Shown here: piece by piece, positions 2,979 to 33,914 of the stretch
How the letters are laid out: every line of letters begins with the position of its first letter
Numbering within the stretch: position 1 is the stretch's first letter
Source of the DNA: a virus
Lineage: Duplodnaviria; Heunggongvirae; Uroviricota; Caudoviricetes
Length of the DNA: 64,000 bases
IMG/VR virus record: IMGVR_UViG_3300021963_000033
Strand: one strand, 5' to 3'
Notes under the pieces: generated by a model
What the model was told of the DNA's origin: nothing
Database searches by the model: none
Seen by the model: only the letters and a program-made list of their open reading frames with translations
Program-made: the position numbers and the translations under genes

Positions 2979-3307
2979 TATCTTGTCACTCCTGGACTGA
3001 CTACGACGATTCCTTCTAGGACTCGCAGAGTTTCATCAACACTGGTAATTTCAATATCATATACATATCTACCTGCTCTAATCGCATGTGTTTGTTCTGC
3101 AGTCATTGATATGGTTACTTCGCCATCCAGCGGCGAAGTAATCTCTGCAGTAAAATCTATAGCAGTATTAGTGTAATAAGATTTGCGCATTTGCGCTGCT
3201 GCTGTGTATGCAGTAAGATCTTTAGGATCTCCGTTCTGATCACCTATCCCGAGCGGAAAAGAAAATGTAGTTCCCTGATCAATAAAAATATTTTGAACTT
3301 GTGCCAT
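2978..3307 (-). CDS. BppU-N/LtfC-like Ig-fold virion structural protein
   Basis: IDQGTTF...DLTAYTAAAQMRKSY...GRYVYDIEI...RVLEGIVVVSPGVTR is typical of T4-like fibre modules. Confidence 0.75.
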   Translation of the reverse strand: MAQVQNIFIDQGTTFSFPLGIGDQNGDPKDLTAYTAAAQMRKSYYTNTAIDFTAEITSPLDGEVTISMTAEQTHAIRAGRYVYDIEITSVDETLRVLEGIVVVSPGVTR

Positions 3308-3317
3308 CAGAAACCCT

Positions 3318-3342
3318 TATAAATTATACGTGAATATTTATA
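3318..3342. promoter_or_regulatory. divergent T4-type late promoters
   Basis: Exact TATAAATA on the minus strand at 3335-3342 (toward fibre genes) and near-consensus TATAAATT on the plus strand at 3318-3325 (toward glycosyltransferases). Confidence 0.6.
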
Positions 3343-3356
3343 ACAATGAGAATACT

Positions 3357-4034
3357 ATGAAATCCATTTTAATGCTAAAATACGGAAAAAAATATTCCGC
3401 TATAGATGTAAATAGAATAGTAAATGATACTGGTAGGAAGTATACCTACGTTTGTTTTACCGACGACCCAACAGATTTAGATCCGATTGTTGTTGCTTGT
3501 CCGTTACCAGATGACGTAGAAGGTCATTGGTATAAGGTTTGGATGTTCAGTCAACGAGGGTTTGGTGACGTTCTTTATCTAGATCTAGATATTCGCATTC
3601 AAAATAATATTGATCATCTATGGAAATACCTTGACAATCATCCGACAATAGCGTATACTTATTGGAAGAATAAAGAGTTTCCTGATCATGTCGGAGACAC
3701 TCATGGTATGCGCTATTTGAGCAACTACAACTCAAGTGTAATGATGTGGAAAGATGGGACGGTTCAACATATATGGGAACACTTCGAACAAAACTCTGAT
3801 TACTACATGGTTAAATACTTTGGTGATGATAGATTTTTGTGGCACGAAGATTTTAGATTTAATTACTTTCCGAAAGGTGAGATATATTCGTTCGTATATG
3901 GTGCAGACTATTATGGTATAGATGATCACAATGAATCCTTCTGGTATAGACCAGAATATACCATAGCATTATTAAATGGGTTAGACCAGTTTCCTGGAGC
4001 AGATAAAGAGTATGATCAATTTCGTATGCATTAA
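3357..4034 (+). CDS. GT-A fold glycosyltransferase-like protein, paralogue 1
   Basis: KYGKKYS, CFTDD, YLDLDI (DxD), NSSVMMW, GDDRFLW. Start moved to MKSIL. Confidence 0.7.
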   Translation: MKSILMLKYGKKYSAIDVNRIVNDTGRKYTYVCFTDDPTDLDPIVVACPLPDDVEGHWYKVWMFSQRGFGDVLYLDLDIRIQNNIDHLWKYLDNHPTIAYTYWKNKEFPDHVGDTHGMRYLSNYNSSVMMWKDGTVQHIWEHFEQNSDYYMVKYFGDDRFLWHEDFRFNYFPKGEIYSFVYGADYYGIDDHNESFWYRPEYTIALLNGLDQFPGADKEYDQFRMH

Positions 4035-4770
4035 GTGGGGTGACAAGTATTCCGCCAAATATGTGAATAATCTTTACAACATGGTAAAGAAGAACTACGC
4101 CAACCTGTTCACATTCACTTGTTATACTGATGATGCTGATGGTTTAATTTGCGATACTGCACCTATACCAGACGATGGTATCCTACATCCCAAATATTGG
4201 TTTGGTACAGAAACCTTCTGTTTTGACCGAGCAAAGTTTTCAGTATTTAATTCACACAACTGGTTAGGTTACGAAGGAAACTGGTGTTATTTTGATCTTG
4301 ACGTGGTAATCCAAGAAGATATAACTGATGTTCTAGAACTTGCGCAAAAACCTCGTATCATTCAATGTCGATGGCAACCGCAATCACAAAAGCATGACAG
4401 ATTGTTTATTGATACTAGAGGCACCTTTTTTAATTCCAGTATGATGCTTTGGCCTGGTAAATCATGCGAGCATATCTACAATGATACCATGGAGAATTCC
4501 GAATCGATATTTAAAACTTTCTTCAAAGGAAGTGACAACTACCATTATTGGAGACAGCGAGATTTCTGGAAAGATATTCCAGGCGGATGGATCTATTCTT
4601 GGAATCGAGGAAAGCATTACCCAGATGATATTGAACGATTTAAGTTTCGATCCGATGCTAAGATTTGCTTGTTCAATACGGATAATGTTCCACATCCTTC
4701 TGCCAAAGAACAAATTAAACTATTAGAATGTGAACACGAAGACATCCTCAGATTGTGGAACTGCGAATGA
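4012..4770 (+). CDS. GT-A fold glycosyltransferase-like protein, paralogue 2
   Basis: CIKWGDKYS, CYTDD, YFDLDV, NSSMMLW, GSDNYHYW. Confidence 0.72.
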   Translation: MINFVCIKWGDKYSAKYVNNLYNMVKKNYANLFTFTCYTDDADGLICDTAPIPDDGILHPKYWFGTETFCFDRAKFSVFNSHNWLGYEGNWCYFDLDVVIQEDITDVLELAQKPRIIQCRWQPQSQKHDRLFIDTRGTFFNSSMMLWPGKSCEHIYNDTMENSESIFKTFFKGSDNYHYWRQRDFWKDIPGGWIYSWNRGKHYPDDIERFKFRSDAKICLFNTDNVPHPSAKEQIKLLECEHEDILRLWNCE

Positions 4771-5585
4771 GAGTTAATTACATCTGCTGTAAATGGGGAA
4801 CAAAGTATTCCGCTGAGTTTGTCAACCGTCTCTATCGCATGGCAAAGAAGCACACTCCAGACAATTTTGAGTTTCATTTCTATTGCTATACAGATAACAG
4901 TGATGGTTTTGATAGTGAAATTAAAGTTATCGACTTCCCAGACATTCCCGACATCCATCCGAAATACTGGTTTGGTTCCGAAGATTTCAAATATGGTATG
5001 GCACGTTGTTGGGACAGACCAAAGACCTTTATCTTCAATACACACAACTTCGCAGAAGATAAACCGACTGGCAGATTTGTATTCTTCGATCTTGACGTAA
5101 TCATTCAAAATGATTTAACGCCGATTATTACCTACGATCTAGAGAATCCTACTAAGTTTCGATCGTGGTGGCAGGATCCTCGTCCAATGAAGTCGCGCAA
5201 CTTTAAGTTATCGCATGGTGCATATACGAATGGTAGTTGCATGGTATGGTCAAATGATCAGACAGAATGTATTTGGCAGGATGTTCTAGAGCACCAAGAA
5301 CGTATTTGGTTTACGTTTACAGATGGCACAGACAACTATCACAGTTGGCGGTGGGGCGACTTCAGCAATACGCCTCTATGGAAACACTTTCCTAATACAT
5401 TTGCATACTCATATAACCGAGGTCGCGACTGGGATTCTAGAGATCTTGAAGTTGGTATATATAGAAAAGACTGTATTGTTTGCGTCTTTAACGTGGATCT
5501 ACTTCCATTTACAGACAATAGCAGAGGTAAAGTGAAACAGGAATCGCTCGTCGATCCTAATTTATTAGAGCATTGGAATGTTTGA
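4767..5585 (+). CDS. GT-A fold glycosyltransferase-like protein, paralogue 3
   Basis: CCKWGTKYS, CYTDN, FFDLDV, NGSCMVW, GTDNYHSW. ATGA overlap with the previous gene. Confidence 0.72.
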   Translation: MRVNYICCKWGTKYSAEFVNRLYRMAKKHTPDNFEFHFYCYTDNSDGFDSEIKVIDFPDIPDIHPKYWFGSEDFKYGMARCWDRPKTFIFNTHNFAEDKPTGRFVFFDLDVIIQNDLTPIITYDLENPTKFRSWWQDPRPMKSRNFKLSHGAYTNGSCMVWSNDQTECIWQDVLEHQERIWFTFTDGTDNYHSWRWGDFSNTPLWKHFPNTFAYSYNRGRDWDSRDLEVGIYRKDCIVCVFNVDLLPFTDNSRGKVKQESLVDPNLLEHWNV

Positions 5586-6268
5586 TGATTAATATTTACA
5601 CAGTGAAGTGGGGATTCAAATATAGTGTTGACCATGTTAATAAAATACTCGAGCAATGCAGAGAACACATAACATCTGATTTCAATTTTTACTGCTTGAC
5701 TGAACACACAATTGGTTTACATTCTGACGTTATTGTAATTCCCTTCCCAGAAGATAACTACTATGAAAAATGGTGGAATAAATTATACTTATTCGATAAG
5801 CAAGTTGTATCTCAGCATGGAGAAAAACTATTTCTGGATCTAGATATAGTTATTCAAAACAATATCGATTGCATTGTAGACCACGATCCAGAAGATAGAT
5901 TGACATTTGTTCGCACCCACTGGCACAACATGAAGAAAATGAAACGCGATACGCAAGATATTCCTCGCGCATATACCGAACTAAATTCTAGCGTGTTAAG
6001 ATGGAATGACAGATTAGATGTTGATAAGATTACCAAGTTTGTCACAGATTATCCTGATCAAATGTTTTTTCATTATCGGGGTCTTGATAATCTTTTCGGA
6101 CATCAGCGCGACCGCTTATTGAAAATTGATTTTTTCCCATCTGGTTGGGTGTATAGTTACAACTACGGATATATGTGGCCAGTCGATACTAGAGAACAAA
6201 TTATCCGACCCGAACCACTAATTTGCCTATATGATTCTATGGAAAGACCACAAGATGTTAAATTATAA
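5585..6268 (+). CDS. GT-A fold glycosyltransferase-like protein, paralogue 4
   Basis: VKWGFKYS, CLTE, WWNKLYLF, FLDLDI, NSSVLRW, GLDNLF. TGATG overlap. Confidence 0.72.
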   Translation: MINIYTVKWGFKYSVDHVNKILEQCREHITSDFNFYCLTEHTIGLHSDVIVIPFPEDNYYEKWWNKLYLFDKQVVSQHGEKLFLDLDIVIQNNIDCIVDHDPEDRLTFVRTHWHNMKKMKRDTQDIPRAYTELNSSVLRWNDRLDVDKITKFVTDYPDQMFFHYRGLDNLFGHQRDRLLKIDFFPSGWVYSYNYGYMWPVDTREQIIRPEPLICLYDSMERPQDVKL

Positions 6269-6911
6269 TTACCTAAACAACTATCGCTTCTGGGGCGAAG
6301 GATTAGACAAGATCAACCACGAACTACCATGGAAGCATGAAGATTTTCGTAAATCGTTGAATCCCAATACGATGGACGCTGCTATTTGGTTGGTAGAAGA
6401 ACTACTGAAAGTAGAAGATATCCCAGAAGAATTGAATATTACAATTTTGAATTCGTGGTTGGGATTTCCCCTAGTACCATTACTCTGTGAAAATTTAAAT
6501 GTCAAAAAGATTAATTTGATCGACATTGATAAAGATGCCTTAGAACTATCGAAAGTGTTCAATCGTTATTATATTGACAATGGCATCGAGATGGATCATA
6601 TCAACTGGGATGTTCCCTTTGCATATCATGATATAAATGCAATAAATACTGATATGGTAATTTCTATTAGTTGTGAATCTATGTACCCATTGAAAAAAAT
6701 GACTACTGCAAATAAAGATTGCATCTTTGCGTGTCAGTCATCCAATGTTTTCAGAGAGATGTATGGTATTAATTGTGTTCCAACTATTGGGGAACATGTT
6801 AACAATGTTGGAGTTACCAATGTTTTATATGATGGTTCAATTAAACAGTCATATTACAGTTGGGATGGTAAGGTCGAGTTTGATCGTTTTATGGTAATCG
6901 GGAAGAAGTAA
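6255..6911 (+). CDS. class I SAM-dependent methyltransferase-like protein
   Basis: ITILNSWLG / INLIDID / MVISISCE Rossmann-type motifs. Paralogous to 50994..51578. Confidence 0.5.
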   Translation: MLNYNYLNNYRFWGEGLDKINHELPWKHEDFRKSLNPNTMDAAIWLVEELLKVEDIPEELNITILNSWLGFPLVPLLCENLNVKKINLIDIDKDALELSKVFNRYYIDNGIEMDHINWDVPFAYHDINAINTDMVISISCESMYPLKKMTTANKDCIFACQSSNVFREMYGINCVPTIGEHVNNVGVTNVLYDGSIKQSYYSWDGKVEFDRFMVIGKK

Positions 6912-6912
6912 C

Positions 6913-7647
6913 ATGGCAAGAGCAAGAGTCGTAGCACCACCACCACAAGATTATATTCCAGAACCTCTGGTAAATACCGTGGTTGTTGAACAGGAATCGC
7001 TAATCATTGAGGAAAGTATTCCTGAAGTATCGATTTGGGAAGATGGTAATTATGAAGAAGAAACCATCTCTGACCCATCGCCCGAAGAAATCGAGCAAGA
7101 ACGACTTGCGCAAGAGAAACATAATCAATTACAACAAAAGAAGTTAGAAGAGCAACAACTAGCGAAAGATGCAGAAGAAGCACTCGCCAAGGCAAAAGAG
7201 ATTATAGCAAATCCGCCTGTTGTAATTGAGACTGTAATAGAAACTGTCGTGGAGACAGTACATGTTCAGGATCCAGAAATCCTCAAAGAAATAGAAAATC
7301 TGCGCAAAGAAAATGAACAATTGTTGCAGATGAAACAAGCAATTGAAAAAACCAAAGAAGAAAAAATTCTTGCTGCCAGAAATAAAATGACTGAGCAAAA
7401 AGGCAATCAATTAAATTTGGTTACGCAGAGAAAACCTTCTTTGATGAATAGATTTAAAAATTATCTTCGCGCACGTCGAATAAAAAAAGCGACAGTCTCC
7501 ATCACAGGCAATAAAAACTATGAGACCGCCATAATTGAACGAGCAAAAATGGCGGTCCCTAAAATATTAGATGACATGGAAAAAATTCACGAGGAGTTGG
7601 TTATCTTTGAAGAACTTCTGGCAAAATATTTAGCACAGAAAAAGTAA
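6913..7647 (+). CDS. hypothetical acidic coiled-coil protein
   Basis: Long E/Q/K-rich ORF that continues the operon. No family recognised. Confidence 0.6.
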   Translation: MARARVVAPPPQDYIPEPLVNTVVVEQESLIIEESIPEVSIWEDGNYEEETISDPSPEEIEQERLAQEKHNQLQQKKLEEQQLAKDAEEALAKAKEIIANPPVVIETVIETVVETVHVQDPEILKEIENLRKENEQLLQMKQAIEKTKEEKILAARNKMTEQKGNQLNLVTQRKPSLMNRFKNYLRARRIKKATVSITGNKNYETAIIERAKMAVPKILDDMEKIHEELVIFEELLAKYLAQKK

Positions 7648-8325
7648 TCAACCGAAGTGCGACGCATCTTCACCCGAGATATCTTCGATCATTGACCGCC
7701 AGATTTCTAGATGAGGCACAACATAACCTAGTGTCAGTCTCTTGGCAGAGTTACCACAGCAGTGATAGACAATTTTATTGGGATCGCTGCGATCGCCAAA
7801 ATATCCAACCTTACATGACCACCCAACAGGGTCGACCATAGTTACGATTTCTTTTGTGACTGGATCTAAGTAGCGAAAGTATCCACCATTTTCTTCGGCA
7901 TTATATGTTATAAGAATATTATAACCCGATGCATTCCAGTTGGTATGCCAACCCATGAAACCATCTTCAGGATAGTAAGTAAACACCGCATTGTTTCTTG
8001 CACCAAGATAACTGATCAGTTCTCTATTAGTTTCTTGTTGCCTTCTGCCATACTCAGATGGAAACCATGATTGTCCATGCGCCTGTGACATGTCAGTACA
8101 CCATGCAACATCAGGGAATCCAACATGCTTTTCACCTTTACCTACGATGTGGTTCAGATATTGCTCGTCGGTAGCAGTGTCAACTGTTAATCCGCCTCGA
8201 CGTTTTTCCTGCATGTCTTGTGGACCCAGAACAAGATGCTGATCATTTTGAGCGAAGAACCATTTTGTGAATGGATCTAGAATATCGCTTAGTTCTTTAG
8301 AAACTGATTTTGTAAATTGTAGCAT
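7648..8325 (-). CDS. 2OG-Fe(II) oxygenase/cupin-like protein
   Basis: FMGWHTN...YHC...RLTLGY double-stranded beta-helix pattern, with HxN rather than HxD. Confidence 0.5.
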   Translation of the reverse strand: MLQFTKSVSKELSDILDPFTKWFFAQNDQHLVLGPQDMQEKRRGGLTVDTATDEQYLNHIVGKGEKHVGFPDVAWCTDMSQAHGQSWFPSEYGRRQQETNRELISYLGARNNAVFTYYPEDGFMGWHTNWNASGYNILITYNAEENGGYFRYLDPVTKEIVTMVDPVGWSCKVGYFGDRSDPNKIVYHCCGNSAKRLTLGYVVPHLEIWRSMIEDISGEDASHFG

Positions 8326-8336
8326 GCGTGTCCTGT

Positions 8337-9032
8337 TTAACTTAGTAAAGAATGCGGAATTGTGTAATGATAAATCACTACTGGTTGACCTTGTAATTCT
8401 TCTTTTTTATATCCGGAAACAAAGTTCCACCTAGCATCTGGATCAGGGAATCTGGCAGTCTTGACACCAAAATCGTAATGATTCAAAAGTCTCCACATTG
8501 TGAATGTGTCCCACTGTAGTGCAGATTCGGGATAATGTTTGCGATCCCATCCTGGTTTATTCTGCTCCCAATACTCACCATACCATGCACGCATGAGGTT
8601 TAATGTTTGTTCATTATTTCGATAGACGAACAACCCGCAGTGCTCAGTCATTTCTTCCGTATCAGATAACTTAGTCAGTGCTGCGTTATATGGACGATTG
8701 GCAGTAAACAATACATCTACATCTTCAGGTATCTGATCAAAGATCTTAGTTATGTCTTCGTGTTCAACTTCCGTATCACAATCCATGTAAACTGTCAGAT
8801 CGTATGGAGTTTGATCAAGCGCCCAAAGTTTTGCTCGCTTGTCCCGTGGTACGTTTTCAGTAATTACTGTATCAAAAATTTCATGATCATCTGGTTGAAC
8901 CCATTCCTCGTGCGTGAAGAATGTTATTTTTGCATCAGGATAGAAATCGCGTAGAGATATAGCGGAATTTCTCGCCGCCCTGTAGTAACCTTTTCTTACT
9001 GTTGCTACGTAGAGGAAACCATTATTCTGCAT
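8337..9032 (-). CDS. GT8-like/nucleotide-diphospho-sugar transferase
   Basis: GFLYVAT, KLWALDQTPYDLTVYMDCDT (DxD), WDTFTMW, WNF, IYHY. Start moved to MQNNG. Confidence 0.7.
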   Translation of the reverse strand: MQNNGFLYVATVRKGYYRAARNSAISLRDFYPDAKITFFTHEEWVQPDDHEIFDTVITENVPRDKRAKLWALDQTPYDLTVYMDCDTEVEHEDITKIFDQIPEDVDVLFTANRPYNAALTKLSDTEEMTEHCGLFVYRNNEQTLNLMRAWYGEYWEQNKPGWDRKHYPESALQWDTFTMWRLLNHYDFGVKTARFPDPDARWNFVSGYKKEELQGQPVVIYHYTIPHSLLS

Positions 9033-9477
9033 CGACTGCTTCTTGAACAATAGCAGCATTCGCTTCTTCTTGTTGCAGAAGAATAACCGTATAAGCAGTA
9101 ACTTCCATGATGTTCTTTGCTTTACGAATCTTAGATTTCAACTCGCGATTCTTTGAAGACTTAATTAGATCGATCTCGAACGCATCTAGTTTAGCAGCAA
9201 ACAGTTGCTCTTGCTGCATACGAGTCTTGTCAACCTTCTGGCGTTCAATGTTATGCTTAATATGTTGATTGCGGTCATCAAAACGCTTCTGGGTATTCGC
9301 ATCAATCTGCTCGATACTATACTTCTTCATCAACTCATCAAAGTCGCGATTAGTTCCGTCGTTCATAATCGATGCAGTCGCTCGTTTACCCGTGTCAGGA
9401 TAAACGAACTCTGCGATGACATGTTGTTTTTCTTTATTCGCCCAGTAAGGATTTTCAATAGTGCGTGTGGTAGTCAT
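9022..9477 (-). CDS. hypothetical protein (possible fibre chaperone)
   Basis: Clean ORF with GGAG SD directly downstream of the repeat fibres. Function inferred from position only. Confidence 0.55.
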   Translation of the reverse strand: MTTTRTIENPYWANKEKQHVIAEFVYPDTGKRATASIMNDGTNRDFDELMKKYSIEQIDANTQKRFDDRNQHIKHNIERQKVDKTRMQQEQLFAAKLDAFEIDLIKSSKNRELKSKIRKAKNIMEVTAYTVILLQQEEANAAIVQEAVDAE

Positions 9478-9546: not shown

Positions 9547-11415
9547 TTATACAGTGCGAACCCAAAGTTTTATTGTCGATACAGTTTCTTTGGTTGCAAT
9601 CACTGTTGCACCAGAGAAGTTGCTTGAATACGTTCCACTAAAGTTGCTGGCATAGTTACCAGTATAGTTTCTAGAACCTGAATAGTAACCAGTGTAGTTA
9701 CCTGTAAAGTATCCAGTATAGTTACCAGTGTAGGTTGCAGTTCCTGCATAGTAACCAGTGTAGTTACCTGTAAAGTATCCAGTATAGTTACCAGTGTAGG
9801 TTGCAGTTCCTGCGTAATTGCCAGAGAAATAACCAGTATATGTGCCTGAATATGTTCCAGTATATGTTGCTGGACCGACATAATTGCCTGTAAAGTATCC
9901 CAGATATGTGCCGAGATATGTACCAGCATAGTTACCTACATAGTTTCTAGATCCTGAGAAGAATCCAGTATATGTTCCGAGGTAGTTACCTGCATAGTTA
10001 CCAGTATAGTTTCTCGAACCGCTATACGTTCCGAGATAATTCCCGCTGAAACTACCAAGATAATTTCCTGTGAAGTTGCTCGAATAAGTTCCGAGATAGT
10101 TACCTGCGAAATTTCCACCAACGAAACCACCAAAGAATCGTGTATATGTTCCTAGGTAGTTACCAGAGAAGTTACCGAGATATGTTCCGGAGAAGTTGCG
10201 CGAATAAGTTCCGAGATAGTTACCTGCGTAGTTACCTGCATAGTTTCTCGAACCAGAATATGTTCCTAGATAGTTTCCGCTGAAGTTACCTGCGTAGTTA
10301 CCTGCATAGTTTCTCGAACCAGCATAAAAACCAGTATAATTACCACTGAAGTTGCTTGCATATGTTCCAGAATAACCAGCAGTTCCTACAAAGTTACCGA
10401 CATAGTTTCCACTGAAACCTCCCGAGTAAGTTCCGGAATAGTTTGCTGGTCCGACATATCCGCCGCTGAAATTATTTGCATATGCCCCAGAGTAATTTCC
10501 TGTGTAGTTTGCTGGTCCAACATAACCGCCGCTGAACGTATTTGCAAAGTTACCCTGGAAGTTTCCAGCATAGTTTGCAGTATAGTTTCTTGAACCTGAA
10601 AAGTTGCCGAGATAGTTACCAGAGAAGTTACCTAGATAGTTCTGTGGTGTTACTTGCTCTCGGGTATCAGCAAACTCATTACCCATTTCAACCCAAGTGC
10701 CGCTTCCTGGTGCTGTAGATTGAACCTTATATGTGCCGATTCCAGTGTCAATGATTCTGTTTCTGAAACTCGGAAGCATCTGTAGAATTTCAGAAGATGA
10801 CATTTCCTTGACATCTTTGGTATCAATAAGTTTTAGTGGTCTGAGATTGGAGTCTGCTAGTGAAGATGCAGCAGTTTTCTGCCATAGATATGTTACTGTG
10901 TTACCGCCATTGGCAACATCAGTTAATGTGTATCGAGCAACCCATGTTCCGCCTGATGGCGCTGTTGGTTGGAGGCGATATTGTCCTGCAGCATATGAAG
11001 ACTCAGTGATCATTGCATTAATTGCGTAGTCTAGAATTTCGGTATCAATTTGACCATCAGTCATTTCTTTGATGCCATCGTCATATTTCAACGGACGATT
11101 GGTAATATTTTCCGTCGCAGCAGCAGTAACCTGTTTAGCGGTATATGTGACAGTGTCAACCGCGCCAGTTGCTGGGTGAGTTCCTGTTGCTTCTTGGCGA
11201 TCGGTGTCAACGAATGTTCCGATAGAAGTACCAGAACCGCTGTTGTTTGTCGTGATATTAATTTCAGCGGTACCAGTACCATCTGAGTTTGCACCAAAGG
11301 AAACTGTCAGAGTTTGCGCAATATAATTCTTTACTTCATCTGCAGACATCTGCTGCAGACCCTGCCAGTTCGCAGCAGAAACTGGTGTTGCTGATGATTT
11401 GTTTCTTAAAACCAT
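9547..11415 (-). CDS. Tyr/Gly/Asn tetrapeptide-repeat fibre protein B
   Basis: N-terminal domain paralogous to 11418..13505, about 350 aa of x(Y/F)xG repeats, C-terminus ATKETVSTIKLWVRTV. Start moved to MVLRNK. Confidence 0.75.
   Translation of the reverse strand: MVLRNKSSATPVSAANWQGLQQMSADEVKNYIAQTLTVSFGANSDGTGTAEINITTNNSGSGTSIGTFVDTDRQEATGTHPATGAVDTVTYTAKQVTAAATENITNRPLKYDDGIKEMTDGQIDTEILDYAINAMITESSYAAGQYRLQPTAPSGGTWVARYTLTDVANGGNTVTYLWQKTAASSLADSNLRPLKLIDTKDVKEMSSSEILQMLPSFRNRIIDTGIGTYKVQSTAPGSGTWVEMGNEFADTREQVTPQNYLGNFSGNYLGNFSGSRNYTANYAGNFQGNFANTFSGGYVGPANYTGNYSGAYANNFSGGYVGPANYSGTYSGGFSGNYVGNFVGTAGYSGTYASNFSGNYTGFYAGSRNYAGNYAGNFSGNYLGTYSGSRNYAGNYAGNYLGTYSRNFSGTYLGNFSGNYLGTYTRFFGGFVGGNFAGNYLGTYSSNFTGNYLGSFSGNYLGTYSGSRNYTGNYAGNYLGTYTGFFSGSRNYVGNYAGTYLGTYLGYFTGNYVGPATYTGTYSGTYTGYFSGNYAGTATYTGNYTGYFTGNYTGYYAGTATYTGNYTGYFTGNYTGYYSGSRNYTGNYASNFSGTYSSNFSGATVIATKETVSTIKLWVRTV
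9683..9813. repeat. 66-bp-period tandem duplication (22-aa unit)
   Basis: 9683-9747 is identical to 9749-9813 by eye. Confidence 0.8.
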
Positions 11416-11417
11416 GT

Positions 11418-13505
11418 TTATGCTGTCCTTACCCACAATTTAACAGATGAAACTGTTTCTTTGGTTGCTTGTATTGTTGCGCCGGAATATGTTCCTGTAA
11501 AGTTATTTATATAAGAACCAGAATAAGTTCCGGAGTAGTTCGTAGTTCCAGTGTAATACCCAGTATATGCTGTTCCTACGCCCGCGAAATATCCTGTGTA
11601 ATAACCTGTGTAGTTTGTGATACCAGTATAGTTTCCAGTATAGTTTGGACCTGGAGTTGGTGATCCAGGAATTACACCAGCATAAAATCCAGTATAGTTA
11701 GTTGGAGTTGGTGATCCAGGAATTACACCAGCATAAAATCCAGTATAAGAACCACTGTAGTTACTACCTGGAGTTGGTGCACCAGAAAAATACCCAGCGT
11801 AAGTTCCCGAGTAATATACTAGACCACTATATCCTGGACCTTCATAGTTACCAGTATAGTTTCTAGATCCAGAATAAAATGCTGGTCCAGAATAGTTTGT
11901 TAGTCCTGTGAAATAACCGATATAACTCGCAGGTCCTGTGTAAAACCCAGTATAGTTTGGCCCAGCAGGTGCCGGCCCAAGATAACCACCAGTATAAGGT
12001 GTTGGTGTTGGTCCAGTGTAACTAGAATAAAATCCAGTGTAGAATGCTGGTTGCGGTGTTGGACTTAGATATTCGCCAGTATAAGCATCTCCAGGTTCTC
12101 CAGGTGCTAGAGGTGGACCTTCATAGTATCCAGTAAAATACTGCTGCACTGGAGTGCCTTGATAAGATCCCTGATAGTTCGTTAATCCGCCTGGAACAAT
12201 TCCCTCATAATATCCTGTGAAGTATTGGAATGTTCCTGGTTCAACACCACTAGCATACTCGCCGCTATATGATTGAGTTCCAGTAAAGAACCCAGCAAAG
12301 TTATTTTCTGTTGGACCAAGGTAGTTTACAGGCGCGCCAGCATAAGTGCCAGCATAGTTTCTGGAACCTGAATAGAACCCGCTGAAGAAACTTGGTGACC
12401 CGTCTGTATAATATCCCGTAAAGTATCCTGTATAACTTGGTGCCGGAGAAGGCGATCCAGCATAAAAACCAGCATAGTTACCAGTATAGTTCGTTGGAGT
12501 CGGCGATCCAGGAATTACACCAGCATAGTTACCAGTATAGTTCGTTGGAGTCGGCGATCCAGGAATTAAACCAGAATAGTTTCCAGTATAATTAACTGGT
12601 GATTGATAATTTCCAGTAAAGTTACTACTGTAATTTCCTGACACAGAATACGGTGCAGAATATGTAACTGGACCAGCATAGTTACCACTATAATTACCAG
12701 TAAAGTTTCCGCTGTAATTACCAGCATAGTTCTGTGGTGTTACTTCTTCACGAGTATCCGTGAATGTGTTTCCTGTTTGAATCCAAGTGCCGCCACTAGG
12801 CGCATCCGTTTGGATTTTATATGTTCCAATACCCGTTTCAATAATTCTATTTCTGAAGACTGGAAGCATCTGTTCGATTTCTGCTTCAGTCATCTGCTTA
12901 CAGTTACCACCATTAAAAACTCTTAGTGGCGTATAATCTACTGTTGGCGCTGAAGATGCAACTGTTTTCTGCCACAGATATGTTACAGTGTTTCCACCTT
13001 GCGCTGTATCTGTTATTGTATATCTTGCAACCCAAGTTCCGCCCGATGGAGCAGTTGCTTGTAGTTTATATTGACCAGCAGTATATGATGAATCTGCAAC
13101 CATTGCATCAATACAGAGATCCATTGTGCTATCAATGTCACTGTCTGACATTTCTTCTAGACGAGAATCCCATGCAAGTGGTCGGTTGGTAATATTTTCA
13201 GTCGCCGAAGCAGTAACTTGCTTAACATAATATGTTGTTGTAGAAACTGAACCAGTAGCAGGGTGTGCCCCGATAGATTCAGTTCTGTTGGTGTCAACAA
13301 AAGTTCCGATTGACGTACCAGAACCTGAGTTATTTGTAGTAATGTTGATTTCAGCGGTTCCAGTACCATCTGTTACTGCAGCAAATTTTTCTGTGATTAC
13401 ATTGGCAATATAATTTTTTACCTCTGCATCGGTCATGGTCTGCAAACCGCTGATGTTTGCAGAAGTGATTGGGGACCCTGTTGCCTTGACCTTTAGAGGA
13501 TTCAT
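11418..13505 (-). CDS. Tyr/Gly/Pro-repeat fibre protein A
   Basis: Same N- and C-terminal domains as fibre B. Central x(Y/F)xG repeats are interrupted by GSPTP/PAP motifs. Confidence 0.75.
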   Translation of the reverse strand: MNPLKVKATGSPITSANISGLQTMTDAEVKNYIANVITEKFAAVTDGTGTAEINITTNNSGSGTSIGTFVDTNRTESIGAHPATGSVSTTTYYVKQVTASATENITNRPLAWDSRLEEMSDSDIDSTMDLCIDAMVADSSYTAGQYKLQATAPSGGTWVARYTITDTAQGGNTVTYLWQKTVASSAPTVDYTPLRVFNGGNCKQMTEAEIEQMLPVFRNRIIETGIGTYKIQTDAPSGGTWIQTGNTFTDTREEVTPQNYAGNYSGNFTGNYSGNYAGPVTYSAPYSVSGNYSSNFTGNYQSPVNYTGNYSGLIPGSPTPTNYTGNYAGVIPGSPTPTNYTGNYAGFYAGSPSPAPSYTGYFTGYYTDGSPSFFSGFYSGSRNYAGTYAGAPVNYLGPTENNFAGFFTGTQSYSGEYASGVEPGTFQYFTGYYEGIVPGGLTNYQGSYQGTPVQQYFTGYYEGPPLAPGEPGDAYTGEYLSPTPQPAFYTGFYSSYTGPTPTPYTGGYLGPAPAGPNYTGFYTGPASYIGYFTGLTNYSGPAFYSGSRNYTGNYEGPGYSGLVYYSGTYAGYFSGAPTPGSNYSGSYTGFYAGVIPGSPTPTNYTGFYAGVIPGSPTPGPNYTGNYTGITNYTGYYTGYFAGVGTAYTGYYTGTTNYSGTYSGSYINNFTGTYSGATIQATKETVSSVKLWVRTA
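11652..11747. repeat. 51-bp-period tandem duplication (17-aa unit FYAGVIPGSPTP)
   Basis: A 45-bp identical block occurs at 11652 and 11703. Confidence 0.75.
12469..12590. repeat. 51-bp-period tandem duplication (17-aa unit NYTGNYxGxIPGSPTPT)
   Basis: Near-identical blocks starting at 12481 and 12532. Confidence 0.75.
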
Positions 13506-13507
13506 TA

Positions 13508-13990
13508 TTAATTCAGCCTGTTACCGCTTGTGTCATAAACAATGAGATTTGTTACACGATACCAATCTTGCGTATCTTGTGCAACCAATTCCACCGATGA
13601 GTATGGTGCTAGATTGACACCAACATTGACAGTTCCACCGTCAATAACATCTGAGGTATTTGGATACACAACAATAGTAACTGCTGTAGTGTTGATAATC
13701 TTGATAGTCAACCCAGCGGCAGCAGTCGGGAGTTTTACGCCCTGATTTGCTGTTGCTGTTGTGATCATGTTTACAGTTTTTGTCAGCGCAGTCGCGTCAC
13801 CTTGAGTAGTTCCTGCTGCTGTGACTGTTCCTGCGACCGATTTGGTAAGAGTTCCAGTAAGTGTGAGATCTGCAAAAGAAGGACTGGCACCAGATTCATA
13901 CTTATCTGAATTCAAATTGCTGAAGTTATCATCAACTTCAGTATTCGTCAGCGGAGTCCCCTTTACAGATCTAAGGGTAAGTGTGCTCAT
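13508..13990 (-). CDS. virion structural/fibre-anchoring protein
   Basis: MSTLTLRSVKGTPLTNTEVDDNFSNLN is a conserved T4-like fibre N-terminal motif. Confidence 0.7.
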   Translation of the reverse strand: MSTLTLRSVKGTPLTNTEVDDNFSNLNSDKYESGASPSFADLTLTGTLTKSVAGTVTAAGTTQGDATALTKTVNMITTATANQGVKLPTAAAGLTIKIINTTAVTIVVYPNTSDVIDGGTVNVGVNLAPYSSVELVAQDTQDWYRVTNLIVYDTSGNRLN

Positions 13991-14215: not shown

Positions 14216-17200
14216 TTATACCTGTAACGCAATCGCTCTTAGTTCTCTTACGCGAGGAACAACAGAACTATTTGACGAGAGAGGAACAACCTTCACTGCG
14301 AAAGATTTATACCCGCTGAAAGTAGCACTTCCAATCGTGTATTCTAAGACACCAGCGTTTTTGTTTGCAGTAGGAATTGTGTACTCATACTCAACAAACC
14401 CAGATTTTGCTGCACTGTCAAGAGGAGAATTGGTTAAATCCAATTCAATCCAATCAAGATCATCAAAGTTTGATGCATCGGTTGCGTTTTGGAATCTACC
14501 ATAAACTTTCACGTCACATCCTGTTGGAATTTTATTGCTCAGATAAACCTTCAAATCTTCTGCGTCTTGACCATCGTCAAGAACTACGCGACGAGAGATA
14601 TACTTCGATGCAGCCAAACCATTGTTTCCATCTTCATTTGTATTGACATTGTTAATGTCATTGGCAATAGCAATAATTGAACATTTTCTTGTATCAATAA
14701 CAGGCGAAACAGTTGATGTTTGAGTCATCATTCCTGCTCTTACAGTCAGAGATTTGTCGCCGCCGAGATCTGCTTGTTCATTCGAATATGAGTAAACTTG
14801 TGCCTCATATGACAATTCATGTTCTTGACCGAAGTTAATGCCCTCGAAGGAAGTTCCGCCAGCACCTGCACCAGTTGCGGTAGGAGCAACGGACCAAGAA
14901 ATTGTGGCAGGAGTATGATCAATACAACCCATGTTCGTTTCTAGCACATTTAGTTGCTTGTTTTCAATTTCAGTAACTTCTGCATAAGTGGTTCCATTAC
15001 CAACGATGTCATTAGCAGTAAACGATCCAGAATTAACCAATAACTTACCAACATTATAGAGAGAATCATATTGCTTCACAAACGCTCTGTTGAGCGTAAC
15101 AGTAACTACAGCACTGGATCCACCACCGCTCGAGATTGTCAGAGTTGGATTGCCTGTATAACCTGCTCCTGGATTTGTAACGACTACATCAGTTACTGCG
15201 CCACCGGAAATTGTTACATCAACTGTGGCATTCGTTGTCGCTCCACCGCCTGATAGGGTGTGGGCAATAGTTCCATTCGTATAACCACTTCCTGGATTCG
15301 AGATATTAAACGAGAACCCATGAACAGTATCACCTGCTTCAAAATTACCATCGGAGAACGAATCAAACTTGAGGAAGTCAACGTCCATGTTCTTCATGAC
15401 AAGCGAACCAACAGTATTGATTGCAAAGTCAGCGCGACGCAGAGTAAACTTAATATCTTCTTTCTGCCATGCTGTCCACGATCTATTGTTCGCAGAAGTA
15501 AACAGAACACCAATATGTGGTTGCTCCGAGATTCTGTTTTCGGTTCCTAGTTCGTTTTCACCAAGTTCCGACACCCAGATATTATAATCTGGATTGTTAC
15601 CTGCAGGAAGAAGAACGAAACAGTACTCTGTATTATTTTGCAGATATACTGGCGATGGGAATGTGAAAGTTGTTGCCGTCGCAGCGGTTTCGCTGACATT
15701 AACAGCGGCAGGATTTAGTGTTACTTCACCAAACGGAATTACCTTGTTACCTGGATAACCATTAACAACTTCGCGAATCTGTAAAGTGATTGGTGCGCTC
15801 GATGATTTAGTTCTGAAGTAAATATCAAGGTTAGTAACATAACATCCAAACGGCATACCTTCAACATAGAAAGTTTGTGCGATAGGATCTCTACCTGCAG
15901 GCGGACGCGCACAAGGATTTACTGTGTTACATCCTGCAGGAACAGTTACTGTTTCAATACTTCCATTGACAAGTCCGCCGAACCCACCAAGACCACCAAT
16001 TACAACTTCCGATTCTTCCCAGCAGGTTGTTACTGGTTCACATGGATTTGAAGTTGGAGTGTCAGCGATAGGCACTACAACAGGAGTTGGATCAACAGGA
16101 GGATCGCCCGAAACAAGCGGAGGATCCTGAATGATATTTGTAATATTTGTTTCATTGATAACTGTTGTGTTGGTAACAGTATTATCGATGTTTGTGATAT
16201 TGTTGACTGTAGTAAACGTATTATTTACTGTCGTTTGAACAACACCAACAGTTCTATCGGCAATTCTATTTTCTGTTCTTTCAGTTTCGAATACTGATCT
16301 AGAATCAGATGTTGAATTCAATTCTATATTAGCGACTCTGGTCGAAATAACTGTATCTTGAACGTTTTGTGAAAGTCCATTCGCAGACCAAGTTTTAGTG
16401 GACGCTGTAGTAATGAATGCATCACGGTTGAATTGGTCGTCGCATAGACGGAAGTTCTTATCACCTGTTCTGAATGTTCCTGCTGGAATTCTAAACTGAC
16501 CAACACAAACACCTTGTGCATTTGTGATTAGTGGGTCGCCATAATTACCATCGGCATACGATGAATATGCAGCAGGATCTGTTGGTTTAACATCAGTCGC
16601 TGGGTCGAAGTCTAGTGGACGACAATGATCAGCAACACCAACACCATCAAAGAACGGGAATACGCGAGTATTCGGTTTCAATCTTTGCGCAATGAATGTG
16701 ACAGTAACTGAGCGCATGAACGGAATGATCGAAGTATTCGTTACTCGAGCACCAGTTCGCTGAGTCTGTGTTTCTGGAGTAACAGACAGCGAAACACCCT
16801 GTCGAGTTTGGCGCTGTTCAATTGTAGTCGTGACAACTTGTGTCTGTTGCTGTAAGAACGTATCACCACGTAACGTAGTATTACCTGCTACAGTTTCTGA
16901 CGACTGACCGACTGCAGTTCTACCAGTTACTACATCTTGCCAGTCACCCCATTGAGTTCCCCAAGCATCTGTCATGGTTTCCCATGCATCATAGTTTCCG
17001 TCGAAGTTTACGCTAACATCTGGTTGTTGTGCGGTATCCGTCCAGTTATCGACTGGTGGATCTAGTTCCATATTTCCGATGTAATTGAATAGTAATTCGC
17101 CGACGCAATTTCTTGGTTTGGAGGCAAAAGGGTTAGATGTCATGTCAATATTGACATACGGGAGAGTGATTAGATCTCCTGTTTTGTAGACATTTGTTGA

Positions 17201-20200
17201 ATTTGCATAATCAAACGCGAGGTCAATATTTTCTAGATAGAAGAAAGGACGCATCTCTTTCTTCGATGGATCGATAGAGATGTGATATGCAGAATCGAAG
17301 ACGTTACCAACGTTATGACCTGTGAACGCATCAACAAGAATACCATTCTTAAATCTGTCAAGACCTGCACCATCAGGAATAGAAAGATCGCTTGCTGCCT
17401 TTTCAAGCAGAGATAGCGAAGTATAGTATTCAAGGCGGTTAATGCGTTGCTCGAGGACACCAATATCGCGCATGGTGTAACGACGATTGTCGATGGTGCG
17501 GAATGATACGCCATAGTCTGGACGATTTACGCTCTTAGCGACATTCGGAGCAAGCGATGGATATGGAGGAATGCTGATTATTGCCAACGACATCGCATTT
17601 TCAGGTTCTGCTGGCGTCAACGGTGCGAGTGAAGGAGTTCCGTAGATAGAACTGAAGATACCCTCGGAGTCGATGATCAGTCTGTCTGTTCTGCCGAGAT
17701 AATATTCCAGATCCGTTGTGAATTGTTCAGTTGGAACAGGGTTCGTGATACCAACTGATGGAGCAGAGATAGAAGCACCTTCACTTGGATTGGTTGTAGC
17801 ACTAGCGACAGTCGTAGAGTTCGCAGCAGAATCTGTGAAACGAACACGGAAATCTAAGGTATCGCGAAGATCAAATGATTCACCAGTAATCGGTGAATTG
17901 TAAACAGGAATATCCTGAGTTTTAATTGTCGCAGCAGTCGCACCAGTGTCATCGATTGGATACGAGTCTACTGTGAAGAAAGTTCCGTCCGCAGAAGCAC
18001 CGTCATGGGTGTAGTAGTCCAACTTGACAACAAGTTTCTTGTCGACAAGAGATGGAGCAGATGGTTTCTTAATGATTTTAGCATTACGATATTCGTTATC
18101 GCGTTGACCACTATCAAGAGTAAACGAAGACGCGATGTCCGTTGCATTATTCGCTGCTATCGCAATTGCTATATCAGTATCACTGGTAGTATATGGGAAG
18201 GTGTAAATATTCTTAATTCTATAGACATCCGAGAGACCAAGCGAATACGTACCACCACTTGTTGATGGGTGAGTATTTGTATTGATGACTACATAACGGT
18301 CCTCGCGAAGAACCTTGGTAATCGGTTGAGCGTTTGCCGATTGAACATTTACATAGAGTTTAACTTGTTTTGGTGCCGAAGTAACTGCTCCTGTAAGATC
18401 GATCGTGATAGATTGCGCCGAGTTCTTTGTAAACGTCGCACCCGTAAGATCAATATTAGACCCGATTGGTTTTGGATTCGAATCGATTGTTGCTGCTTCT
18501 TTCAGTACCATAGTGAAATTATTGTTTTTTATGGTAGAAGTAAACGCATCATACGGGAAGGTCTCGTCACCACTCAGAGTGATAGTAACTTGACCTGACG
18601 CATTAAGTTCCCCGTCGAATTCTTTTGTATAGATAAACGAGTTATCATATACATTATTCGGTGCAATAGTTTTCGTTGCACGAGCAGGAATTCTGTAGAG
18701 TGATTTGTTGAAACTTGTTTCTTGAAGAACTGCATTGCTGTTTACGTCAAGAACAACATCAGCATGTCCATCAGCGGCAGCATCATTATAGAAGATACCG
18801 CGAACATCTTTGAAATCGCCGCTTGACATTGTGATATCATAGAGATATAAACGATATTCTGCCGCAGCAGCGCCTGCGGTTCCAGACTCATACACAATTT
18901 GTCTTACGCGAGCAGTACCAACTTCTGAACCTGGAGCAGATGTGGCAGAGAATGTTGTCGCAGTTACTGCACCTGCCGCTGCGCCACGGAGACTTACGCG
19001 ATCGCCACCATTAAGATCCCAAAGACCGCAGAATTCATTGACTAGAATGTAGTTACCATATGCAGTGCTGATAGGAATTTCTTGTTGGTTGACTGTTGTA
19101 AGACCCTTTGGAACTACGACATATTCTGTTTGGAAAGTTTCGTGTTCGAAGCCGCGTACATATGCCTTACCTGCTTCGAGTCCGATAGCAAGAAGATCTT
19201 TGCTACCACCACGCTCTGGATCGACAGTGTTTAATTCGCGTAAACCATTATTCCCGTCAACATTGAGATGTTCTTTGATCAGAACAGGGAATTGTCTTAC
19301 TGCATAGTTGCCCGATTCGTCATATGTGCGTCTTGCCATGTTTTTGCCAAGTTCACCATAGATATTTGCAGTATATGTTCTTTGAATTTCGCCGTTTACG
19401 ATATCGACAAGTTGACTGAATGTTGCAGGAAGAGTTTCTTCTGGACCATACTTAACAAGTGTGGTCGAAACTTGGTATCTATCTGCACCTGGAGCAGCAT
19501 AGTTGAAAGATCCTTGTGCAGGATCCAGCAAAGTTTGATCATCTTCAGATGAAACAGTATTTTCTACGATCTGAAATCCAACTTTTACGGTTGGTAGATT
19601 TGAATACTTAGAAAGTATGATTGTTTGTGCTGTATGGTTTACAAACTTTCCATCAATATACACAATACCATCATCGACTGTTAATGCTGAAGCAATCCCC
19701 CAATAACTGTTGATTGGTTCTGCTTCGTCGTATGTATTGTCAACAACAAATGTATCACCATTTCTACCCGAATCAGTAGATGATACAGTTAGTGTTTCAC
19801 CGCCCTCAAAGTGAACAGCAGTTGATGAACCATCACCGCTAGTATAACGGAGATATAGAGTCTTCAAATTTGGCAGTTCTGCTTCAGTACCAGTTGCGGT
19901 ATCAATGATTACTGCAGTAATTCCTGTTGTGCCGCCTGTTACGGTGTCGCCAACATAGTCTGCTAGTGTATCATTGTCTGCGTTTGCATCTGCGATTTTA
20001 ACAAACGCTCTCTCGGAGTCTAGTTTAAATTCGCAACCTTGAACGACCGAACCATTCTTGAAAATATGGTCACCGAACTTACCAATTTGCGTTTGCAACA
20101 GAGTTTGAAGTTGCGTTAGTTCTCGTGCCTGTACTGCATATCCAGGTTTGAACAGAACTCTGTTGAAATTTTTAGTATCATCAAAGTCGTCATAGTATGG

Positions 20201-20224
20201 AGATACATTTAAATTCAGTGCCAT
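14216..20224 (-). CDS. large virion structural protein, VrlC/DUF4815-like
   Basis: NLNVSPYYDDFD...RVLFKPGYAVQARELTQLQ N-terminus, RRTYDESGNY, DPIAQTFYV and KYISRRVVL motifs. Confidence 0.85.
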   Translation of the reverse strand: MALNLNVSPYYDDFDDTKNFNRVLFKPGYAVQARELTQLQTLLQTQIGKFGDHIFKNGSVVQGCEFKLDSERAFVKIADANADNDTLADYVGDTVTGGTTGITAVIIDTATGTEAELPNLKTLYLRYTSGDGSSTAVHFEGGETLTVSSTDSGRNGDTFVVDNTYDEAEPINSYWGIASALTVDDGIVYIDGKFVNHTAQTIILSKYSNLPTVKVGFQIVENTVSSEDDQTLLDPAQGSFNYAAPGADRYQVSTTLVKYGPEETLPATFSQLVDIVNGEIQRTYTANIYGELGKNMARRTYDESGNYAVRQFPVLIKEHLNVDGNNGLRELNTVDPERGGSKDLLAIGLEAGKAYVRGFEHETFQTEYVVVPKGLTTVNQQEIPISTAYGNYILVNEFCGLWDLNGGDRVSLRGAAAGAVTATTFSATSAPGSEVGTARVRQIVYESGTAGAAAAEYRLYLYDITMSSGDFKDVRGIFYNDAAADGHADVVLDVNSNAVLQETSFNKSLYRIPARATKTIAPNNVYDNSFIYTKEFDGELNASGQVTITLSGDETFPYDAFTSTIKNNNFTMVLKEAATIDSNPKPIGSNIDLTGATFTKNSAQSITIDLTGAVTSAPKQVKLYVNVQSANAQPITKVLREDRYVVINTNTHPSTSGGTYSLGLSDVYRIKNIYTFPYTTSDTDIAIAIAANNATDIASSFTLDSGQRDNEYRNAKIIKKPSAPSLVDKKLVVKLDYYTHDGASADGTFFTVDSYPIDDTGATAATIKTQDIPVYNSPITGESFDLRDTLDFRVRFTDSAANSTTVASATTNPSEGASISAPSVGITNPVPTEQFTTDLEYYLGRTDRLIIDSEGIFSSIYGTPSLAPLTPAEPENAMSLAIISIPPYPSLAPNVAKSVNRPDYGVSFRTIDNRRYTMRDIGVLEQRINRLEYYTSLSLLEKAASDLSIPDGAGLDRFKNGILVDAFTGHNVGNVFDSAYHISIDPSKKEMRPFFYLENIDLAFDYANSTNVYKTGDLITLPYVNIDMTSNPFASKPRNCVGELLFNYIGNMELDPPVDNWTDTAQQPDVSVNFDGNYDAWETMTDAWGTQWGDWQDVVTGRTAVGQSSETVAGNTTLRGDTFLQQQTQVVTTTIEQRQTRQGVSLSVTPETQTQRTGARVTNTSIIPFMRSVTVTFIAQRLKPNTRVFPFFDGVGVADHCRPLDFDPATDVKPTDPAAYSSYADGNYGDPLITNAQGVCVGQFRIPAGTFRTGDKNFRLCDDQFNRDAFITTASTKTWSANGLSQNVQDTVISTRVANIELNSTSDSRSVFETERTENRIADRTVGVVQTTVNNTFTTVNNITNIDNTVTNTTVINETNITNIIQDPPLVSGDPPVDPTPVVVPIADTPTSNPCEPVTTCWEESEVVIGGLGGFGGLVNGSIETVTVPAGCNTVNPCARPPAGRDPIAQTFYVEGMPFGCYVTNLDIYFRTKSSSAPITLQIREVVNGYPGNKVIPFGEVTLNPAAVNVSETAATATTFTFPSPVYLQNNTEYCFVLLPAGNNPDYNIWVSELGENELGTENRISEQPHIGVLFTSANNRSWTAWQKEDIKFTLRRADFAINTVGSLVMKNMDVDFLKFDSFSDGNFEAGDTVHGFSFNISNPGSGYTNGTIAHTLSGGGATTNATVDVTISGGAVTDVVVTNPGAGYTGNPTLTISSGGGSSAVVTVTLNRAFVKQYDSLYNVGKLLVNSGSFTANDIVGNGTTYAEVTEIENKQLNVLETNMGCIDHTPATISWSVAPTATGAGAGGTSFEGINFGQEHELSYEAQVYSYSNEQADLGGDKSLTVRAGMMTQTSTVSPVIDTRKCSIIAIANDINNVNTNEDGNNGLAASKYISRRVVLDDGQDAEDLKVYLSNKIPTGCDVKVYGRFQNATDASNFDDLDWIELDLTNSPLDSAAKSGFVEYEYTIPTANKNAGVLEYTIGSATFSGYKSFAVKVVPLSSNSSVVPRVRELRAIALQV

Positions 20225-21876: not shown

Positions 21877-21882
21877 GTTATA

Positions 21883-22332
21883 TTACGAGATCGTTACCGT
21901 CCAAGTGATTGTCATGCTGTCTGACGCACCCTTGTTAATGACAGCGAATTCAGTGCGGCAAAGCATTGTTCCGCTTGTTAAAGCATTGAAAATGCCTGCT
22001 TCAGTTACAGCGCCAGTTCCTGAACCTGCGCCAAACGTTGCAACATATTGAATCGCATTCGCGGTTACAGTTGTCGAAGTCAGTGCAACCCGCGCACCAA
22101 GTGGAGTTTCCAGAGCAGTATCGCCTGCTGCTGGATTTGTTGTGCCCGAACCAACTGCCATGTGCGACATCGCGCCCAGAGTAGTATCTTTCATACGCGA
22201 AGCAATATAAGCAAGACCTGCGTCAACAACAAGGTTAGGAACAGTTACTTCTTGTGTAACATTTCCTGCATTGTCGCGAAGAACGATGTTTAGTTCGCCC
22301 TTAGTACCTTTTACGTTTTCGATTAGTTTCAT
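21883..22332 (-). CDS. baseplate/tail-fibre-associated structural protein
   Basis: NLVVDAG...MAVGSG...TEAGIFNA...MLCRTEF...TITWT pattern. Confidence 0.7.
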   Translation of the reverse strand: MKLIENVKGTKGELNIVLRDNAGNVTQEVTVPNLVVDAGLAYIASRMKDTTLGAMSHMAVGSGTTNPAAGDTALETPLGARVALTSTTVTANAIQYVATFGAGSGTGAVTEAGIFNALTSGTMLCRTEFAVINKGASDSMTITWTVTIS

Positions 22333-22348
22333 TTGATTTACCTTCTTC

Positions 22349-25330: not shown

Positions 25331-25333
25331 CTA

Positions 25334-27220: not shown

Positions 27221-27221
27221 C

Positions 27222-27620: not shown

Positions 27621-27625
27621 ACCTT

Positions 27626-27633
27626 TATTTATA
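27626..27633 (-). promoter_or_regulatory. T4-type late promoter TATAAATA
   Basis: Exact consensus immediately upstream of gp25. Confidence 0.75.
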
Positions 27634-27641
27634 ATGCATTT

Positions 27642-30932: not shown

Positions 30933-30940
30933 ATTTCCTC

Positions 30941-31933: not shown

Positions 31934-31934
31934 T

Positions 31935-33398: not shown

Positions 33399-33400
33399 AA

Positions 33401-33913: not shown

Positions 33914-33914
33914 A

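Follow-up and report, generated by a model that had tools for sequence, protein, structure and literature searches.

A predicted out-and-back hairpin shaft in a tail fibre of an uncultured T4-like aquatic phage

Tail fibres determine the range of hosts to which a phage can attach, and those of the abundant uncultured aquatic T4-like phages are essentially unannotated. The DNA analysed here, a stretch of 64,000 nucleotides from the IMG/VR virus record IMGVR_UViG_3300021963_000033 (referred to as the window), belongs to a T4-like aquatic myovirus that has not been cultured. Two paralogous genes, A and B, lie next to each other on its minus strand (Table 1), and the product of the second, fibre B, is probably a virion fibre. 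Fibre B contains an N-terminal base domain, a repeat shaft interrupted by short kinks and a conserved C-terminal strand. We consider it likely that the shaft is an out-and-back hairpin with paired kinks and that the C-terminal strand closes the base domain. The topology itself, which leads from the base through an outward arm, a Gly-rich turn and a return arm to the closing strand, is well supported.

The repeat shaft of fibre B and its kinks

Residues 266-609 of fibre B, a region of 344 amino acids (aa), are parsed from the translation as 79 in-phase x(Y/F)xG tetrads. The tetrad consensus is (N/T)-(Y/F)-(S/T/A/L/V)-G. Position 1 is Asn in 46 and Thr in 18 of the 79 tetrads, position 2 is either Tyr (56/79) or Phe (23/79), position 3 is Ser, Thr, Ala, Leu or Val, and position 4 is Gly in 70/79. 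The whole region uses just 12 amino-acid types; Asp, Glu, Lys, His and Cys are all absent. Gly and the aromatic residue both recur with a period of four, and the Gly at every third residue of a collagen-like or polyglycine-II repeat is not seen. The consensus form N-(Y/F)-(S/T)-G is also an N-x-S/T sequon, and 21 sequons are found in the shaft (9610-10641, minus strand) versus 4 in the base domain.

The phase of the tetrads is shifted by 12 two-residue insertions, the kinks, which are Ser-Arg (SR), Pro-Ala (PA) or Thr-Ala (TA). They are spaced 26, 22, 22, 22 and 22 residues apart before the centre and 22, 26, 22, 22 and 22 residues apart after it. The central span is 76 aa between SR dipeptides, or 74 aa if kinks are defined as four residues. 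A preliminary description of this DNA had reported the tetrads, 12 kinks with their order, a spacing of 22 (twice 26) and a 74-aa centre, all of which are reproduced by the translation parse. It had also noted that the kink classes (R for SR, A for PA and TA) form a palindrome, R-A-A-A-R-R followed by R-R-A-A-A-R. The palindrome is real, but it is weak evidence when taken alone. Six R and six A kinks give a class palindrome by chance in 20/924 orders (2.2%), and the probability is higher still given the blocky order (R, AAA, RRRR, AAA, R), so that the palindrome is only suggestive. A closer correspondence is seen when kinks are measured from the tip. The non-SR kinks lie 85, 107 and 129 residues away on both arms and are paired as TA/PA, PA/TA and PA/TA, while the SR kinks show a 4-residue stagger between the arms.

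At the DNA level, the 22-aa period is a tandem repeat of 66 base pairs (bp). Identity between the repeats is 92% in the TA units of the return arm (9652-9813) and 78% in the PA units of the outward arm (10424-10578). This shows that each arm gains units by local duplication, and selection then keeps the arms matched. The duplications that gave rise to facing units do not seem to have occurred at the same time.

Table 1. Features of fibre B and paralogue A in the window (tip distances in residues).
Feature	Coordinates	Strand	Description	Basis
Fibre B gene	9547..11436	-	629 aa from GTG at 11436	Open reading frame list and translation
Paralogue A	11418..13505	-	695 aa; base domain and C-terminal strand as in B	
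N-terminal base domain	10642..11436	-	aa 1-265; ~85-aa unit (helix and beta-hairpin) repeated three times in tandem	
Base repeats, approximate bounds			aa 16-106, 107-193, 194-270	hhalign of sub-alignments
Outward (left) arm	10126..10641	-	aa 266-437 (172 aa); x(Y/F)xG tetrads	
Left-arm kinks			SR282, PA308, PA330, TA352, SR374, SR396; 155, 129, 107, 85, 63, 41 from tip	
Tip/turn FFGG-FVGG	10114..10137	-	aa 434-441; clade-wide conserved column	Alignment A1
Return (right) arm	9610..10125	-	aa 438-609, 172 aa	
Right-arm kinks			SR474, SR496, PA522, TA544, TA566, SR588; 37, 59, 85, 107, 129, 151 from tip	
Conserved C-terminal strand ATVIATKETVSTIKLWVRTV	9550..9609	-	aa 610-629; predicted to complete the beta-hairpin of base repeat 3	

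Equal arms and mirrored kinks among relatives

Arm lengths were compared among relatives as the distance from the end of the N-terminal domain to the tip motif (L) and from the tip to the C-terminal strand (R). In 28/38 of the first aligned homologues, L and R differ by 3 residues or less. The larger sample pooled proteins and IMG/VR loci and comprised 99 proteins with a tip, which fall into 56 distinct architectures. L equals R in 33 of the 56, and the two differ by no more than 2 residues in 47. Between them, these show 35 different lengths of the arm, the shortest being 46 and the longest 246 aa, and the equality of the arms over these lengths supports the earlier proposal that the chain runs out and back.

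The kinks follow the same mirror. There are 105 in-register pairs of non-SR kinks, and Pro-x lies opposite Thr-x or Ser-x in 101 of them. Pro/Pro and Thr/Thr pairs are each found in 0/105, and another residue is involved in 4/105. When kink partners were permuted, the maximum was 70/105, as compared to the 101 observed. The pairs come from 13 different kink patterns, examples of which, written as left arm/right arm and read from the tip outward, are P/T, TP/PT, TPP/PTT, TTP/PPT, PPP/TTT, TT/PP, TTTPP/PPPTT and TTTTTPP/PPPPPTT. Duplication of one arm cannot give patterns with an odd number of kinks or patterns in which all Pro faces all Thr. The complementarity is genuine covariation of mirrored positions. 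SR kinks are found opposite SR kinks, with a stagger of -4 in 71 cases and within -2 to -6 in the remainder. Because of this four-residue stagger, a 26-aa unit is needed at each passage between an SR level and a PA/TA level, which explains why a spacing of 26 occurs twice in fibre B. The expectation that kink i pairs with kink 13-i is thus supported, at equal tip distance for the Pro and Thr/Ser kinks and with a stagger for the SR kinks.

Two other measures of mirror symmetry were less informative. A crude mirror shuffle test of irregularity tracks was positive (p<=0.05) in 94/194 relatives, but it is confounded by irregular centres and serves only as background. Mirrored cross-correlation of residue classes gave little beyond the SR signal. 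A plain direct duplication, instead of a mirror, was first suggested by the PPT versus PTT order and by a 6-tetrad segment that follows SR in both halves. It was dropped because Pro and Thr proved to be exactly complementary once kinks were counted from the tip, also in the patterns that no duplication would produce. Tandem duplication of 22-aa units does occur locally within each arm, where it is the mutation that supplies new units, and it is not an alternative to the hairpin.

Paralogue A has a mirror design like that of fibre B. Its inserts are Pro-rich (IPGSPTPT twice, SPSPAP/APTPGS, and GSR), and their distances from the N-terminal and C-terminal anchors are 20/20, 30/30, 44/45, 54/55, 71/73, 92/94 and 121/127. 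PV and TT are located at 20/20, IPGSPTPT is among the inserts at 54/55 and 71/73, and GSR is at 121/127. The motif GPPLAPGEPGD lies at the exact centre. The PV opposite TT at 20/20 is again a Pro that faces a Thr.

The base domain, the closing strand and the path of the chain

The three repeats of the base domain are homologous to each other (hhalign, probability 97-99.6%), with E values of 6e-11 for repeats 1 and 2, 3e-24 for repeats 2 and 3 and 9e-11 for repeats 1 and 3. The C-terminal strand ATKETVSTIKLWVRT of fibre B is matched by ATKETVSSVKLWVRT in paralogue A, which agrees with an earlier remark that the two proteins share it, and this motif is conserved in relatives of 230-4046 aa. A global hhalign comparison matches the C-terminal strand (..vstxxLWxRtA) to the repeat-2 return strand (..tttxLWqKTa). 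In repeats 1 and 2, a loop of 6-11 residues connects the two strands of the hairpin; in repeat 3, the 344-residue repeat region takes its place. Since the C-terminal strand is homologous to the repeat-2 return strand, the shaft is an insertion inside the hairpin of repeat 3, and insertion into a beta-hairpin by itself implies an out-and-back path.

Structure prediction was carried out with AlphaFold2 (AF2) on a 376-aa homologue, P0048, which has 46-aa arms and is about 77% identical to fibre B in the aligned part. It was modelled as a monomer from an alignment of 95 diverse sequences. The overall predicted local distance difference test (pLDDT) score was 84.6 and the predicted template modelling (pTM) score was 0.78. 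The base scored >90 and the C-terminal strand 96-98, and in this model the strand docks confidently in the base domain of the short homologue. The profile homology and this docking both support the suggestion in the preliminary description that the strand folds back onto the N-terminal domain. DSSP strands in the P0048 model are placed in mirror positions about the tip and break at a PR/TD kink pair, which is a weak sign given a shaft pLDDT of ~50.

The best matches of the P0048 model in VIA-align were beta-prisms of the MABP type (MVB12B, 3TOW; the C-terminal domains of Plu-MACPF, 2QP2, and Mp2Ba1, 8B6V), with 117-123 residues aligned and Z scores of 5.9-6.3, which lie below the value of about 8 taken as specific and in the range that the tool calls non-specific. 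These alignments span residues 53-376, so the C-terminal strand is included in the domain. Like a MABP-type beta-prism, the base has a three-fold internal repeat (hhalign) that forms one compact beta domain (AF2 pLDDT >90). The MABP-type proteins have no sequence relation to fibre B, and none of them carries an elongated hairpin. T4 gp11 gave a Z of 2.1 against the same model.

Taken together, these data suggest the following path. The hairpin of base repeat 3 would be enormously stretched: the chain would leave the base, run outward for 172 residues of x(Y/F)xG tetrads, turn at FFGG-FVGG and run back antiparallel for another 172 residues. The final strand, ...KETVSTIKLWVRT, would then re-enter the base as the second strand of the repeat-3 hairpin. 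Across the arms, kinks would face each other, with Pro-Ala against Thr-Ala at the same level and Ser-Arg against Ser-Arg staggered by four, and the two 26-aa units would switch between the in-level and the staggered mode of pairing. The arms may form an extended two-stranded beta ribbon with periodic bulges. On a beta strand, Tyr/Phe at position 2 and Gly at position 4 would alternate along one face, and because every insertion has two residues, the parity of the faces is preserved along the arm. The insertions would thus behave like paired beta-bulges along an antiparallel ribbon of great length. How long the shaft is would depend on how many paired units it has, at roughly 0.33 nm per residue per arm, which gives about 55 nm for fibre B. 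Several chains may bundle into an oligomer, as those of other fibres do, and either the tip or the Tyr/Asn-rich sides might contact the host envelope.

Several observations weigh against this model. The arms are unequal by 3-23 residues in 9/56 architectures, and several of these differ by about 22, that is, by one unit. These architectures may be real intermediates, or they may reflect 66-bp repeats that collapsed in short-read metagenome assemblies. The shaft of the P0048 model has a pLDDT of about 50 or lower, and the AF2 model of the window protein (from an alignment of 38 close homologues) has a pLDDT of 37 and is unusable for a fold search. The family is not carried by any cultured phage, and its sole GenBank phage match, C48C1, has 27% identity. 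Finally, covariation cannot separate pairing within a chain from pairing between chains.

The last point leads to an unlikely alternative, in which the arms pair antiparallel between chains. The chains would be extended or domain-swapped, with the left arm of one subunit against the right arm of the next, the C-terminal strand would complete the base of the neighbour, and FFGGFVGG would sit on a two-fold centre and not at a turn. Equal arms and Pro/Thr complementarity would arise equally from such an arrangement, and the AF2 prediction was of a monomer only. Nonetheless, the Gly-rich tip resembles a turn, and the homologous strands of repeats 1 and 2 are joined in cis by their short loops. The apparent globular domain at the centre of larger relatives also fits a distal tip better than the centre of a dimer, and we know of no phage baseplate fibre with base domains at both ends.

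It is also improbable that the hairpin is compact, folded at its kinks into an accordion, a sandwich or a two-start solenoid with one rung per inter-kink segment. The 5-residue DSSP breaks of the AF2 model occur at kink positions, and the common spacing of 22 aa resembles a solenoid rung. However, kinks in the relatives lie 6, 10, 14, 22, 26 or 50 residues apart, the first kink can be as far as 61 residues from the tip, and these distances are always matched between the arms. Lengths that vary and are yet matched argue against segments that act as rungs of fixed length, and equal rungs are not required by these data. The breaks come from a shaft with the low pLDDT given above.

A unidirectional beta-solenoid or triple beta-helix is far less probable. 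The C-terminal VxGxxxxx repeats of T4 gp5 and the shaft of gp12 are of this type, with one direction and a constant rung length. Fibre B resembles them in its short Gly-containing beta repeats, in the thin rigid rod that it would form and in its baseplate and fibre gene context. Its regular 22-aa super-period would also suit such a shaft, and its conserved C-terminal motif could be a foldon-like distal folding nucleus. In contrast to these shafts, the halves of fibre B are mirror-matched and its inter-kink lengths are variable; neither a constant rung length nor an absence of mirrored halves is found. A unidirectional shaft would leave unexplained the central tip, the arms that are equal over 35 lengths, the mirrored Pro/Thr complementarity, the fact that the C-terminal strand is homologous to a strand of an internal hairpin, and its docking by AF2. 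Intrinsic disorder of a low-complexity Gly/Tyr/Asn stretch is hardly credible: it would fit the 12 amino-acid types in 344 residues and the low AF2 confidence, but it would not keep arm equality, tetrad phase, the two-residue size of insertions and complementary kinks across hundreds of relatives.

The preferred hairpin has a known counterpart in topology. In T4 gp37, the collar D10 is formed by residues 811-881 and 1010-1026, and the needle and the tip lie between them (PMC6957217). Likewise, the shaft of fibre B would separate the two parts of base repeat 3, aa ~194-270 and 610-629, and homology, AF2 and the equal arms all suggest that N-terminal and C-terminal segments lie in one domain. 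The receptor-facing tip of gp37 sits at the turn and Gly is essential in its stem, which would also apply to fibre B. The gp37 needle is held by seven Fe ions on His triads (His-x-His), and the fibre B shaft is without His. The shaft of fibre B is up to about ten times longer than the gp37 needle and consists of x(Y/F)xG tetrads interrupted by paired two-residue insertions, and it grows from a pseudo-threefold domain of a single chain, whereas that of gp37 grows from a collar of the gp10/gp12 type. No sequence or fold match to the fibre B family was found for gp37 or for the gp10/gp12 collar, the shaft model being too poor for comparison. Fibre B is therefore like the gp37 needle in topology but is probably not a member of the gp37 family: it lacks His-iron sites, gave no sequence or fold match in these searches, and has a different repeat chemistry and a different base.

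An even chance can be given to the wider proposal that this is an undescribed fibre-shaft fold. It would be a beta ribbon locked in register, made of x(Y/F)xG tetrads and grown in paired units from one hairpin of a pseudo-threefold base, and its register would be marked by Pro/Thr bulges that complement each other and by Ser-Arg bulges with a stagger. The fold would define a large family (663 clusters) of length-tunable stalks of aquatic T4-like phages that can carry tip domains. With it, the out-and-back principle of the gp37 needle would have a second example, of different chemistry, and covariation across long beta-hairpins an unusually clean case from nature. The family gains a testable architecture of base domain, outward arm, tip, return arm and closing strand. 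Its sequence rules (equal arms, Pro opposite Thr, staggered SR) can be used to annotate homologues, to locate the tip that likely faces the receptor and to detect repeat assembly errors.

Family members and gene neighbourhood

A word-indexed search found 945 homologues of 374-825 aa, all of which are unnamed metagenomic proteins. An exhaustive HMMER search gave 663 clusters at 50% identity, with proteins of about 230 to 4046 aa, and IMG/VR contributed 78 further loci. All family members have the N-terminal domain, together with a C-terminal strand that fits the pattern ..T.(S/T)T..L(W/Y).R.A. Neither A nor B has a match in Pfam, PHROGs or NCBIfam, and there are 0 matches among PDB sequences by phmmer or profile. 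The preliminary description did not recognise the fibre fold and suggested a Foldseek search; with the P0048 model, this search returned nothing at E<=0.001 in PDB and BFVD. Matches in the ESM Atlas are unnamed viral clusters only, and a limited search did not find the family in the published literature.

Among the phages in GenBank, a related N-terminal domain occurs only in Phage C48C1 (Kyanoviridae, OQ984149). The domain heads a 3347-aa protein (record positions 141011-151054), located within the tail-fibre block after a gene annotated as 'tail assembly chaperone'. This protein is far longer than fibre B and is annotated as hypothetical only.

Larger relatives have additional segments. P0151 and P0159 (1578 and 1628 aa) consist of tetrads, then a non-repeat centre of ~400 aa, then tetrads again. 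The centre has no Pfam domain in either protein; it looks like a tip domain inserted at the turn and is a candidate receptor-binding head. Some close homologues (P0003-P0006, P0008, P0020 and P0021) have an extra domain of ~76 aa between base repeats 1 and 2 (alignment A1, columns 111-186), which is absent from the window protein.

No phage in GenBank is near-identical to the window. Fibre B is encoded just downstream of baseplate genes, which include gp6-like and gp8-like genes and the gene of a 2002-aa protein. PHROG profiles place baseplate wedge, hub/lysozyme, tail and tube-cap proteins at 20239-35198. Pfam identifies T4 Gp8 at 20239-21876. It also finds DUF4815 in the 2002-aa protein (14216-20224), which is tentatively taken to be VrlC from the position of its gene. 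In related aquatic T4-like phages, the genes that follow the VrlC baseplate gene are described as tail fibres of a hypervariable, glycosyltransferase-rich 'host recognition cluster' (PMC7029224). The layout of the window matches this arrangement, and a glycosyltransferase-rich block is found at about 3300-9100, immediately downstream of fibre B.

Two small open reading frames flank the A-B pair on the minus strand, one of 160 aa (13508-13990) and one of 151 aa (9022-9477). They have no family match in Pfam, NCBIfam or PHROGs and might encode adaptors or chaperones. In 32 of the 78 IMG/VR loci, the gene immediately upstream of a B-type gene is of the A type.

The GTG at 11436 overlaps the end of gene A, and an ATG at 11415 (M8) lies two bases past the A stop (11413-11436, minus strand). 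This ATG is the likely start of fibre B, because the majority of homologues begin at the equivalent position (MVLRNKSS). A start at M8 in most homologues, two bases after the stop of A, also suggests that A and B are translationally coupled.

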